Origin: Candidatus Nanohaloarchaea archaeon | Lineage (GTDB): Archaea; Nanohalarchaeota; Nanosalinia; Nanosalinales; Nanosalinaceae | NCBI GenBank assembly: GCA_041640035.1 | Contig: JBEQBC010000003.1 | Location: 32,001 to 96,000, forward strand | Direction of reading: 5' to 3' | Length of the DNA stretch: 64,000 nucleotides | Shown: positions 56,410 to 59,440 of the stretch, in pieces | Layout of the letters: each line of letters begins with the position of its first letter | How positions within the stretch are numbered: position 1 is the first letter of the stretch | Notes under the pieces: model-generated | The model's input: only the letters and a program-made list of their open reading frames with translations | The model's database searches: none | What the model was told of the DNA's origin: nothing | Made by a program: the position numbers and the translations under genes

Positions 56410-56913
56410 TTATTCGAAGGATAGTTCGTATTCTTCGCCTGTTACTTCTTCGACGACATGTTCGAACTCTTCGTTGCTCATGTTGATCTTTCCTTCGTAT
56501 TCCTCGCTTACAACGATCTTTTTGCTCTGTCCGTCAGGCTTGAAGACTGTATTGATTGACTGGATCTCTGCCGGGCTTAGAAGTCCTTGGATTACTTCTC
56601 TGTTGTCTTCTGATTTCTCGACTATCCGGATTGATTTGTCTACCTGGCTTGCGATTTCTTTTACGATTTCTCCGCCTTTTCCTACGACCTTGGCTCCGTC
56701 TCCTTCTGCTGTTACTATTACGATGACATTTTCTGTGTCGATTGCTTTGATTATTTCGCTGTCGCGGAGTGATCCGTATTCGTTGCTGAGGTCGTGGAGT
56801 ATCCTTGAGATTTTTATGTCGAGTTCTGTTATCTCGCCCTCGTCGAGCTTTTCCTGGCATCCGCTGCACAGGACATCGCTCTTTAGACATACATTACATA
56901 TTGGTGCCTTCAT
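56410..56913 (-). CDS. NusA-like KH-domain protein with N-terminal Cys4 motif
   Basis: PICNVCLKSDVLCSGC, KH loop VVGKGG. Confidence 0.8.
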   Translation of the reverse strand: MKAPICNVCLKSDVLCSGCQEKLDEGEITELDIKISRILHDLSNEYGSLRDSEIIKAIDTENVIVIVTAEGDGAKVVGKGGEIVKEIASQVDKSIRIVEKSEDNREVIQGLLSPAEIQSINTVFKPDGQSKKIVVSEEYEGKINMSNEEFEHVVEEVTGEEYELSFE

Positions 56914-56975: not shown

Positions 56976-57488
56976 TCAGATTCTCGACCTTAACTCCAGT
57001 GGTTCAGCAATTAAAGCAATTTCCTGGTACACTGCAAGCATCAGTAGAAGAGCTGAGCCGTAGAAACCGAAGTAACTATTGATTCCGGATAGTAGAACAG
57101 TCAGAGATGCGGCTAGACCGAACTCTACCGGTCCAAATGTCAGTTCGTATGTGTGGTTCAGTTTTTCTTTCAAACTTAACTCGGTTAGAAGCAGTAAGGC
57201 AAAAATCGATAGAGCTGAGATACTGAGATATTTAGGCACTGATTGAATATTGACTGCGAGGGCGGCCAGTGTTAGGAAAACCGTGTTTTTCAGCAAAGGT
57301 ACCGTGACTTTTCTCTTGCGGTTCATTCCTTCCCGATTTGCTTTTCTTGAGGTTCTCAGGTAGCTGAACACTGACAGTAGACCGAGTAGGCCGGATGCTA
57401 TTAGAAGGCCTCTTACTGATGTTATTGCTGTTACTAGAAGTAGTGCAAATGTTGATAGATAGAGTGTTTTGAAACCTGGTTCTCTCAT
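56976..57488 (-). CDS. Hypothetical membrane protein
   Basis: Several hydrophobic helices. Confidence 0.6.
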   Translation of the reverse strand: MREPGFKTLYLSTFALLLVTAITSVRGLLIASGLLGLLSVFSYLRTSRKANREGMNRKRKVTVPLLKNTVFLTLAALAVNIQSVPKYLSISALSIFALLLLTELSLKEKLNHTYELTFGPVEFGLAASLTVLLSGINSYFGFYGSALLLMLAVYQEIALIAEPLELRSRI

Positions 57489-57548
57489 CTAGTTATTACT
57501 TGTGAGTTAAACCTAATAACAGTTGTGCTGAGAACTTGGTAGTTGTAG

Positions 57549-57568
57549 TAAAAAAGAAATGTGAAAAA
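57549..57568 (-). terminator. Oligo(T) terminator of the ftsZ transcript
   Basis: Minus strand tttttcacatttctttttt directly after the long hairpin. Confidence 0.55.
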
Positions 57569-57571
57569 CCT

Positions 57572-57670
57572 CCAGGTGGAGGAGAACAGGACTCTTGCTC
57601 TAGTCGAAAGGGGGGGGAGGGGAGTTTTCGATTTAGCAAGAGTTTGAGAGTCCCACTCTCTTCCACCTGG
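57572..57670. other. Long imperfect hairpin with G-run (+) / C-run (-) loop in the ftsZ 3' region
   Basis: Nested pairs CCAGGTGGA/TCCACCTGG, ACTCTTGCT/AGCAAGAGT and TCGAAA/TTTCGA around GGGGGGGGAGGGGAG. Confidence 0.8.
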
Positions 57671-57691
57671 TAGCATTAATTACTAGGCGCT

Positions 57692-58762
57692 TTACTCAAG
57701 CACCTCTAAGCCTAGGTCGTTTACATCGCCGGTGACTTCTGTTTCTTCATCTTCCTCGATATCACCGAGTACATATGGGCTTTCTACACCAGTGACGATG
57801 GATATAACTTGTAGCTTTCCTTCTAGTTCGTCCTTGATTCTTGCACCCCAGATTACCTGTGCTGAGGTGTCAAGTTTCTGCTTGACTCTCTGTCCTACAT
57901 CGTTGATCTCGTTGAGTGTAAGGTCTTGTCCTCCGGCTACATGAAGGAGTGCTCCATTCGCTCCGTCGAATTCTACATCGAGGAGTGGGTTGCTTAGTGC
58001 TTCGTGGATTGCTTCTTCTCCTTTGTTGTTGGTGTCGCTTTCTCCGTATCCTACTACTGCGACTCCTCCTTCGTTCATGATTGCCTGGACATCTGCGTAA
58101 TCAAGGTTGACTAGTGAAGGTTTGCTGATTGTTTCTGTAATTCCCTGGATCATTGTTGTGATCAGTTCGTCTGCTACTCCGAATGCCTGATCCAGTGGCA
58201 TGTCTCCTGCAATATCGAGTAGTTTGTCGTTTTCGATTACGATTGCGGTGTCGACATGCTGTCTTAGTTTGTAAAGTCCTTCTTCTGCTTTGCTCATTCG
58301 TGCGCCTTCAATCTCGAAAGGCATCGTTACTGTTCCGATTACTATACATCCTTCTTTCTTTGCGATCTCTGCTAGGACTGGTGATACTCCTGTTCCGGTT
58401 CCTCCTCCAAGTCCTGCTGTGAGGAATACCATGTCTGCGTCTTTAAACAGGTTTCTTAGCTCTGCACGGTTTTCTTCTGCTGCCCGTGCTCCTTTTTCTG
58501 GGTGTCCTCCTGCTCCGAGTCCCTTTGTCAGGTCTCGGCCGACCAGTATTTTACGGTCTGCGGAAGACATTTTCAGGTGCTGCTTGTCAGTGTTGATAGC
58601 GACAGTTTCAGCTCCCTCTACTTCCTTATTCTGGATCCGGGTGATCTGATTGTTACCAGCTCCCCCAGCTCCTACTACTAGGATTTTAGCATCTTTTACA
58701 TCTTCGAGACTTTGTTTGTCAGCCTCTTCTTCTTGACCAGCGTTATCGATTATGGATTCCAT
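57692..58762 (-). CDS. ftsZ: Cell division protein FtsZ (FtsZ2-like clade)
   Basis: GGGTGTG tubulin signature. PSLVNLDYAD, AR..KAEEGL and VIWGARI resemble archaeal FtsZ2. Not followed by secE/nusG. Confidence 0.95.
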   Translation of the reverse strand: MESIIDNAGQEEEADKQSLEDVKDAKILVVGAGGAGNNQITRIQNKEVEGAETVAINTDKQHLKMSSADRKILVGRDLTKGLGAGGHPEKGARAAEENRAELRNLFKDADMVFLTAGLGGGTGTGVSPVLAEIAKKEGCIVIGTVTMPFEIEGARMSKAEEGLYKLRQHVDTAIVIENDKLLDIAGDMPLDQAFGVADELITTMIQGITETISKPSLVNLDYADVQAIMNEGGVAVVGYGESDTNNKGEEAIHEALSNPLLDVEFDGANGALLHVAGGQDLTLNEINDVGQRVKQKLDTSAQVIWGARIKDELEGKLQVISIVTGVESPYVLGDIEEDEETEVTGDVNDLGLEVLE

Positions 58763-58842
58763 TGTAAGTATCAGCCTGCGGTGTAGTTGCACCTAACCTT
58801 TTTAAGTCGGCATAGGTAATTCTAACCTAGAACAAATCGAAC

Positions 58843-58991
58843 TCGTCTTGCCCAAGACGAAAACTTACATGATTCACTTCGAGTTTGCCCAAACTCGAAC
58901 TTGCCCGACTTTGATTCGACCTGTTTCAACTCGTGCCCGCGAGTCGAAAGGTCAACGAACCTCAGATCATGTGCCCGCATGATCGAAGTTC
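58843..58991. ncRNA. Candidate structured ncRNA or 5' leader: four stem-loops with the same GCCC/GGGC loop
   Basis: TCGTCTT-GCCC-AAGACGA, TTCGAGTTT-GCCC-AAACTCGAA, ACTCG-TGCCCG-CGAGT, GATCATG-TGCCCG-CATGATC. A fifth TGCCC lies at 58902-58906. Confidence 0.6.
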
Positions 58992-59031
58992 AATCGAGCT
59001 ATCTTCTATACTAACTTATACTTGAAGCCTG

Positions 59032-59039
59032 TTTATAAA
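59032..59039 (-). promoter_or_regulatory. TATA box upstream of the hairpin array
   Basis: TTTATAAA about 40 nt before the first minus-strand hairpin. Confidence 0.5.
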
Positions 59040-59057
59040 TGTTTCCTTGAAGTAGTT

Positions 59058-59076
59058 ACTGTTCACGACTGTTCAC
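59058..59076. repeat. Tandem 9-bp direct repeat ACTGTTCAC with 10-bp period
   Basis: Copies at 59058-59066 and 59068-59076. Confidence 0.7.
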
Positions 59077-59161
59077 TGCACTCGAAAACAACATTCTCAC
59101 GGATTCAACCCCTGGTATTCAGTAAGTTGTTTAAAGAAAACCCTCCTCAAACTTATCTGCC

Positions 59162-59440
59162 ATGGTAGACACTGAAGAAGTCGAGGAAGTAGCAGAGAAC
59201 GCCAGAATAGAACTTGAAGAAGGAGAAGCAGAAGAGTTCGCAGAAGAATTCGAAGATATACTAGAGATGTTCGAGACCCTCGACGATGTAGGCACCGAAG
59301 ATGTAGAACCCTCCTTCCACCCTGTAGAAGTATCACCAACAACCAGGGAAGACGAAGTAGAGGAAACACTCGACGAGAACCAAGTTTTCAAGAACACCGA
59401 TAACGAGGAAGATGGTTTCTTCAAAGGACCGTCAGCTTAA
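59162..59440 (+). CDS. gatC: Asp/Glu-tRNA amidotransferase subunit C
   Basis: EVEEVAENARIEL...REDEV...DGFFKGP. Confidence 0.9.
   Translation: MVDTEEVEEVAENARIELEEGEAEEFAEEFEDILEMFETLDDVGTEDVEPSFHPVEVSPTTREDEVEETLDENQVFKNTDNEEDGFFKGPSA

Follow-up and report, generated by a model that had tools for sequence, protein, structure and literature searches.

A phylum-wide array of hairpins with variable stems and an invariant loop upstream of an ftsZ2-like gene in Nanohaloarchaeota, a candidate RNA family

The intergenic stretch between ftsZ and gatC of a Candidatus Nanohaloarchaea archaeon holds an array of small hairpins whose stems are unrelated and whose loops are the same. It lies in a window of 64,000 nucleotides (assembly GCA_041640035.1, contig JBEQBC010000003.1, positions 32,001 to 96,000), and all coordinates below count from the first letter of that window. 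The element, at 58835-59010, is non-coding and structured, and it is specific to and universal in the phylum Nanohaloarchaeota. Its loops read TGCCCR on the + strand and YGGGCA on the - strand, with four hairpins (58843-58984) and one unstemmed copy. What is observed directly is the anatomy of the array, the covariation of its stems, its occurrence at one locus in the genome and its constant position before ftsZ2. We regard it as a candidate new RNA family. An earlier reading of the same stretch, hereafter the original prediction, had described the four hairpins, the unstemmed fifth copy and a box upstream of them, and all of these are where it placed them. The array and the features on its ftsZ side are as follows.

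58843-58860, either strand: hairpin H1, TCGTCTT-GCCC-AAGACGA, with a 7-bp stem and the loop GCCC on + or GGGC on -.
58878-58899, either strand: hairpin H2, TTCGAGTTT-GCCC-AAACTCGAA, with a 9-bp stem and the loop GCCC on +.
58902-58907, either strand: unstemmed motif copy TGCCCG, recognised by reading the sequence.
58918-58953 (core 58929-58944), either strand: hairpin H3, with the core ACTCG-TGCCCG-CGAGT and an outer helix containing one A.C and a 2-nt bulge.
58957-58991 (core 58965-58984), either strand: hairpin H4, with the core GATCATG-TGCCCG-CATGATC and an outer helix.
59032-59039, - strand: distal TTTATAAA box, a presumed TATA box for transcription through the array towards ftsZ, with the direction and a start near 59009 both predicted.
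58790-58833, - strand: conserved 44-nt block, the presumed ftsZ promoter and transcription-factor site, made up of a proximal TATA-like box and an upstream dyad of the AGGTA..TACCT type (TAGGTA..TACCT).
58799-58806: proximal TATA-like box inside the 44-nt block, TTTTTAAG on + and CTTAAAAA on the ftsZ strand, 36 nt from the ftsZ ATG.
57692-58762, - strand: ftsZ, an FtsZ2-like paralogue that always accompanies the array (Pfam Tubulin 9.2e-46, FtsZ_C 5.5e-32; TIGR00065, 398 bits).

Conservation was followed in 41 related genomes, within a phylum set of 70 genomes that belong to one order. All 41 encode the FtsZ orthologue. A DNA search with the locus matched 17 of them, and what matches across genera is the 44-nt block and not the hairpins: the block is 86-93% identical in about 14 genera, its flanks diverge, and it occurs once in the source genome. 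Upstream regions were compared at 35 loci that include the ftsZ N-terminus (L001-L035, from families f1, f3, f4 and f5) and in genome G025 of family f2, and every one of them carries the array, which covers all five families. The shared order runs from the FtsZ start through a TTTTTAA-type box in the conserved block and a run of [G/T]CCC(AA) motifs in the same orientation, varied to CGCCAA in G028, to the TTTATAAA box, which is identical in 31 of the 35 loci. Each array has between 2 and 7 motif copies, mostly 4-5, at a median spacing of 31 nt; in some genera, unstemmed copies also stand side by side, as in TAGCCCAATAGCCCAA. A scan of named records agrees with this picture. The array was present in 36 of 36 Nanohaloarchaeal loci, with 3-8 motifs each, and the exact TTTATAAA stands at 217-281 nt from the FtsZ start in 34 of them; the carriers include Nanohaloarchaea archaeon SG9, Candidatus Nanosalina sp. 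VS9-1 and metagenome-assembled genomes (MAGs) of Candidatus Nanohalobium (L046-L048, L051). Upstream of FtsZ in other phyla, no CCC-loop hairpin was found at any of 14 loci. One further record, L043 (JBLGBK010000009.1), has an FtsZ that is 95% identical and the array, yet is titled as a Colwellia polaris MAG; it looks mislabelled or mis-binned.

The source genome itself shows that the hairpin cluster upstream of ftsZ is real and not a product of chance. Perfect hairpins (stem of at least 5, loop of 4-6) number 2,828 in its 978,572 bp, and only 10 have a GCCC/GGGC loop. Four of these 10 fall within 142 nt, at the array, a clustering that under uniform placement has a probability of the order of 1e-9 by our own arithmetic on these genome counts. 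The remaining six all lie within long open reading frames (ORFs), and no second locus was found. Both strands of the array fold better than expected, at -67.5 kcal/mol for the - strand (z -4.97) and -53.6 kcal/mol for the + strand (z -5.13), and none of 200 dinucleotide shuffles equalled either value. The best matches of a hairpin model, R1, in three complete genomes are all in the ftsZ-upstream array, with singletons at E>=0.4 elsewhere, and its sole match in the source genome is H2. The array proper contains no tandem repeat by Tandem Repeats Finder (TRF). Rfam 15 gave no match at the gathering score in the 64-kb window and none at E<=10 in 58700-59200, as had been expected.

The array also bears the marks of selection on structure. 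Among the relatives, 88 of 151 motif copies sit in the loop of a perfect hairpin with a stem of 5 bp or more, against 88 of 4,605 control positions in the same regions, and the other 63 of the 151 lie outside such hairpins. The arrays together contain 85 hairpins of at least 6 bp, whereas shuffled versions average 6.6 and never exceed 17. Stems vary between hairpins and between genera while the loops stay constant. H3 has the highest sequence conservation of the array's hairpins in family f1, and the orthologues of H4, which occupy the same position as the last hairpin before the TATA box, have at least 8 different stems in family f1 alone. A hairpin model of 20 positions, built from 15 hexaloop hairpins, found 61 hairpins in 34 loci; in the resulting alignment, which was fitted by the model itself, all 7 of the 7 stem pairs have changed on both sides, and 89.9% of the cells are paired, compared with 47.3% in shuffles (none of 500 reached it) and 21-41% with a slid partner. 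The terminal hairpin and these seven pairs give the covariation across species that is generally looked for in structured leaders and non-coding RNAs. On the + strand, the loops of 112 hairpins fall into a few classes: GCCCAA (26), GCCC closed by TT/AA (23), CGCCCAAA (17) and TGCCCG (13), followed by TCCCAC (5), TGCCCAG (4), CGCCAA (3) and others rarer still.

The original prediction had taken variable stems around a fixed loop as a sign of selection on single-stranded structure and not of a DNA repeat or a miniature inverted-repeat transposable element (MITE), and had looked to relatives for conservation and covariation. Both are present there, and this reading is supported by covariation, by conservation throughout the phylum and by the presence of just one locus in each genome. 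The alternative of a chance cluster, a mobile element (a MITE or a repetitive extragenic palindrome, REP) or an assembly artefact has only the small size of each hairpin to recommend it. The array is syntenic in all loci examined, occupies one locus per genome, covaries, and lacks a TRF tandem repeat; with the other GCCC-loop hairpins located in ORFs, we reject the MITE/REP identity and consider the whole alternative refuted.

The gene that follows the array is an FtsZ2-like paralogue, as had been proposed. Its product scores 351 bits against M. jannaschii FtsZ homolog 1, lower than the 412 bits of the second paralogue (taken from genome G001), and is therefore the more divergent of the two; no array was found upstream of the second paralogue. 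We also tried secE-nusG synteny as a marker of FtsZ1 and rejected it, as the downstream ORFs of 63 and 170 aa do not belong to such families. The first of these (57485-57676), between ftsZ and a KH gene, has no family and an odd composition and may not be a gene; the second (56976-57488), in the same interval, looks like a multi-pass membrane protein with a weak DUF2070 match (E 0.0065).

In other archaea the position taken by the array can belong to a regulator. Darnell et al. 2020 (PMC7439475) state that ftsZ2 and cdrS occur together in every archaeal clade but DPANN. The absence of cdrS noted in the original prediction agrees with this: we found no cdrS-like ORF upstream of ftsZ and no conserved ORF in the array on either strand, and matches to the ribbon-helix-helix (RHH) family RHH_1 in the source genome are confined to other contigs, C14 and C15. 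A protein-coding function or a leader peptide was rejected, since the longest ATG-ORFs of the arrays span 1-56 aa and are not conserved.

The other flank of the array is arranged as follows.

58763-59161: intergenic stretch between ftsZ on the - strand and gatC on the + strand; beyond gatC lie a metallophosphoesterase gene, gatA and gatB.
59058-59075, + strand: direct repeat ACTGTTCA-CG-ACTGTTCA, found by TRF and unique in the genome, on the gatC side and not part of the array.
59162-59440, + strand: gatC, the usual divergent neighbour (Pfam GatC 1.9e-16), with its own TATA-like TTTAAAG at 59130-59136.

Across the source genome, the TATA signal lies at -31 to -25 from start codons and translation is largely leaderless. 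The gatC TATA box, 32 nt before the gatC ATG, stands at the distance typical of these leaderless genes. gatC is the array's neighbour in 30 of the 35 loci. In genomes G003 and G030 it is not; about 170 nt past TTTATAAA lies the end of a gene that points the same way as the FtsZ gene (a 472-aa LamG protein in G003, Pfam 9.5e-51; a 398-aa ORF in G030). The TTTATAAA box is nevertheless kept at the array in both. Because it persists where no divergent gene exists, and because gatC has a TATA box of its own, the box belongs to the array and FtsZ module, on whose strand the original prediction had read it. With nothing but the array left to transcribe, it favours transcription towards the FtsZ gene, and this synteny in G003 and G030 is the best pointer to that direction. 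All hairpins lie beyond the predicted start site of the distal box. In 34 of 34 loci, the T-runs between the array and the ftsZ ATG do not exceed 4, and a sense transcript would therefore run on into ftsZ2 as a long leader. A terminator-like scan did pick up H1 on the - strand followed by TTCGATTTGT, a resemblance confined to this genus. Closer to the gene, the 44-nt block probably contains a transcription-factor site for ftsZ2, and its TATA-like box suggests that it functions as the ftsZ promoter.

Two observations concern the neighbours rather than the array. Relatives have 2-4 copies of TGTTCA/TGAACA, which are lost in G003 and G030. Since these repeats travel with gatC and vanish where it is not the neighbour, the ACTGTTCA repeats look like an operator for the gatCAB operon. 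In families f2 (L040, G025) and f5 (L035, G028) the divergent neighbour appears, from the look of its N-terminal translation, to be an Asp/Asn-tRNA-synthetase-like gene instead of gatC; if that is right, the neighbour in both arrangements is a gene of the indirect Asn/Gln-tRNA pathway.

We propose that the array is transcribed from the distal box on the ftsZ strand, as a long structured leader or a small RNA (sRNA) that displays UUGGGC loops to a multivalent RNA-binding protein, and we give this reading a probability of roughly 45%. The transcription, strand, protein binding and regulatory outcome that we infer are these. Transcription would start from the distal TTTATAAA box on the - strand and yield either a long structured leader on the FtsZ2-type mRNA or an independent RNA of about 170-250 nt, or both. 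The RNA would form a row of independent 5-9-bp hairpins with the apical loop (U)UGGGC (or the variants CGGGCA, UUGGGA and UUGGCG), with extra unpaired copies of the motif in the linkers. An RNA that shows one short motif again and again is laid out like a multivalent binding platform, on which an oligomeric or multi-domain RNA-binding protein may occupy several loops at once. Once bound, this protein might set the translation or stability of ftsZ2, or it might itself be titrated by the RNA.

Several results weigh against this proposal, above all against its choice of strand. An RNA from the sense strand should tolerate A.C on + (G.U in the RNA), which should then dominate, and it does not: 856 pairs in relatives include 21 G.T and 24 A.C on +, and wobbles flanked by at least three Watson-Crick pairs on each side number 9 versus 7 (122 distinct hairpins, 944 such pairs), so that no strand bias is seen. 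The earlier observation that A.C mismatches on + become G.U pairs on - thus holds for the two long stems of the source genome and fails across relatives. Raw minimum free energy (MFE) is better on the ftsZ strand in 23 of 23 f1 loci, whereas outside f1 the + strand is ahead in 7 of 9 loci, although this test is confounded because C exceeds G on +. After mononucleotide shuffling the + strand has the better z in 30 of 32 loci (mean -3.43 versus -1.78), an advantage that owes much to the C-rich motif itself, given how little skew the linkers show (A 0.30, C 0.20, G 0.17, T 0.32). The orientation of TTTATAAA was scored with a position weight matrix from 97 leaderless-type promoters of the source genome; the two orientations differed by about 1 bit, + scoring higher in 13 of 31 loci, which is uninformative. 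The matrix also gave an odd result for the proximal box, so we do not rely on it. In principle, transcription might also start from the proximal box and run towards the array. We considered a helix TAGAA/TTCTA that would close the array as a whole and dropped it: its right arm is present, by eye, in about half of the f1 loci, and its left arm is invariant.

These same strand results open the way to an sRNA made from the + strand, antisense to ftsZ and running from the proximal box to the T-rich stretch before or at TTTATAAA, with GCCCAA/UCCCAA loops that would pair with G-rich targets or bind a KH-type poly(C)-binding protein, for which the NusA-like KH protein encoded downstream of ftsZ is an example. 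The composition-controlled z-scores and the raw MFE outside f1 speak for it, as do a predicted start 23 nt after TTTTTAAG, which coincides with the end of the conserved block, and, in 17 of 34 loci, T-runs of at least 4 on + in the interval from the last hairpin to shortly after the TATA box. Of the 23 f1 relatives with a KH match, 21 also have the KH gene on the same contig as ftsZ, at a distance of 0.1-1.3 kb. However, a + strand transcript leaves the TTTATAAA box of G003 and G030 without a role, T-runs reach 5 or more in just 4 of 34 loci, the + strand shows no excess of G.T pairs, and the proximal box reads TTAAAAA towards ftsZ, in the T-then-A order of the genome's TATA signal; the KH linkage was not found in families f2-f5. 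We therefore see the + strand sRNA as a serious but unlikely reading. A role at the level of DNA would explain the indifference to strand in another way. Cruciforms or transient single-stranded hairpins could offer GCCCAA/TTGGGC loops to a protein, or the GCCCAA motifs could be iteron-like transcription-factor sites that tune ftsZ2. Stems made up of Watson-Crick pairs nearly throughout (944, compared with 16 well-flanked transition mismatches) and free of strand bias are what is expected if both strands fold; in addition, the motif copies all point one way, directly upstream of the ftsZ promoter block, and in some genera stand next to each other unstemmed. Yet extrusion of short cruciforms of 5-9 bp is unfavourable, especially at high salt such as that inside these cells, and a factor that reads duplex DNA gives no reason for covarying palindromic flanks. 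Because extrusion from stems of this length is physically unlikely, we rank a DNA-level role below RNA and hold it to be distinctly improbable.

Nor does the array look like a replication origin. A cdc6-linked origin was rejected, with cdc6 located 0.38-0.41 genome lengths away in four complete genomes, and the array's repeats do not have the conserved arms of origin recognition boxes (ORBs). A better candidate lies elsewhere: on contig C8 (G000:C8:1434-1915), a 1.1-kb spacer upstream of a single orc1/cdc6 has inverted GTTCCACTCGAAA and direct TCCACATGAAATCAGGGGGT repeats and a GGGGGT string, which look like classical ORB elements when set beside the ORB consensus and make a replication origin likely. 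Signal recognition particle (SRP) RNA and RNase P RNA were likewise rejected as identities of the array; SRP RNA is on C1 and the RNase P candidate on C4. That candidate (G000:C4:48829-49139) is the only one and scores 41 bits against a gathering score of 84, and it may be divergent or reduced.

Within the sense-strand proposal, two more specific ideas concern the binder. The loops may mimic the anticodon loop of tRNA-Pro, so that prolyl-tRNA synthetase (ProRS) or a modifying enzyme binds the RNA and couples division to translation status. The tRNA-Pro(UGG) of the source genome has the anticodon loop UUUGGGA, with which sense loops have UUUGGG in common; the sense loops include UUUGGGCG (17) and UUGGGC (26), G003 has exactly UUUGGGA in a 7-nt loop, and the variants retain NGG preceded by U or C, as in proline anticodons. 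Against this, loop lengths are mostly 4, 6 or 8 nt instead of 7, U33 is missing from the CGGGCA class (13 of 112 loops are without the U), the source genome's own loops have C where its tRNA has A38, proS is not linked to the locus, and a 5-nt resemblance to one of 36 tRNAs arises by chance at the several-percent level by our own estimate. We consider the mimicry very improbable. Another tRNA-Pro, with the anticodon GGG (G000:C4:36782-36854, found with ARAGORN), has an unusual anticodon loop of its own, GTGGGGC, with G and not a pyrimidine at position 32. The KH protein at 56410-56913, which the original prediction had offered as a partner, is NusA-like with two KH domains (NF005013 at 159.7 bits, just below the cut-off of 175). 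It makes a poor fit, as its gene is linked to ftsZ in family f1 only and the array is phylum-wide. Both the NusA-like KH protein and the tRNA-Pro-loop resemblance are weak leads, and the suggested coupling to host attachment found no support.

Regulation of FtsZ-based division in archaea is largely unknown. CdrS, the one established regulator of ftsZ2, is reported missing in DPANN (PMC7439475). A whole DPANN phylum here keeps, in the slot of cdrS, a non-coding structure whose stems covary, whose loop motif is invariant and which presumably has a TATA box of its own. The array thus gives experiments a way into the control of division in obligate symbiotic nano-archaea. A more ambitious hypothesis is that CdrS was replaced in Nanohaloarchaeota by an RNA device, in which 2-7 UUGGGC loops cooperatively bind a division regulator that might also read tRNA-Pro, and FtsZ2 output is set post-transcriptionally; taken as a whole this is speculative, and we would bet against it. 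If true, it would give archaea their first CsrB-like multivalent RNA platform, and no earlier case would be known of archaeal cell division controlled at the level of RNA. If the loops do bind protein cooperatively, the principle of a multivalent sponge or leader would extend from bacteria to archaea. Our literature search found no description of the array. A halite metatranscriptome does contain a conserved 266-nt intergenic sRNA of a Nanohaloarchaeon, STRG.4577.1 (PMC7002113, Fig. S6A and Data Set S1), which may or may not correspond to the array.

Several known systems resemble the array in part. In the original prediction it was likened to the CsrB/RsmZ sponges, and as far as layout goes the comparison is apt. 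CsrB, RsmZ and RsmY are bacterial protein-sponge sRNAs that carry A(N)GGA motifs in hairpin loops and linkers, and the array shares with them the many short hairpins, the unrelated stems, the same short G-rich motif in each loop, the extra single-stranded copies in linkers and a spacing of tens of nucleotides. However, its motif is YGGGC and not A(N)GGA, with GGA found only in the minority variant UUGGGA; it belongs to an archaeon, is fixed in cis upstream of one gene, has no evident terminator and is known here from DNA alone. CsrA (PF02599) was found in none of the 41 genomes, in a search whose controls, E. coli, B. subtilis and T. maritima, gave matches. The likeness to CsrB is therefore one of layout only; with neither its motif nor its protein present, the array falls outside that family.

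The guanidine-II (mini-ykkC) riboswitch consists of two hairpins in a 5' leader, whose ACGR tetraloops kiss each other. The array resembles it in having small hairpins in tandem, whose stems vary and whose apical motif does not, and differs in its 2-7 copies, in GGGC loops that are not self-complementary in that way and in having no Rfam match. The operator of E. coli thrS is an mRNA leader that mimics the anticodon arm of tRNA-Thr, as the array's loops resemble an anticodon loop, that of tRNA-Pro (UUUGGGA); the loops are mostly not of 7 nt, the gene is ftsZ2 and not one for an aminoacyl-tRNA synthetase, and the resemblance may be due to chance. If the + strand were the RNA, the array would be comparable to the C-rich-loop sRNAs of Firmicutes, such as RNAIII and RsaE/RoxS with their UCCC/CCCC loops, of which the staphylococcal UCCC loops pair with Shine-Dalgarno sequences. 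It would likewise have several CCC loops able to pair with G-rich sites, although in another domain of life and in a genome whose translation is largely leaderless. Finally, the cdrS-ftsZ2 operon of Euryarchaeota, as described in PMC7439475, offers a likeness of position: like cdrS there, the array takes up about 180 nt in the same slot, directly upstream of and co-directional with an FtsZ2-type gene, and it would have its own promoter. Where that operon has an RHH protein gene, however, the Nanohaloarchaeota have no ORF, and the slot is filled instead with hairpins.

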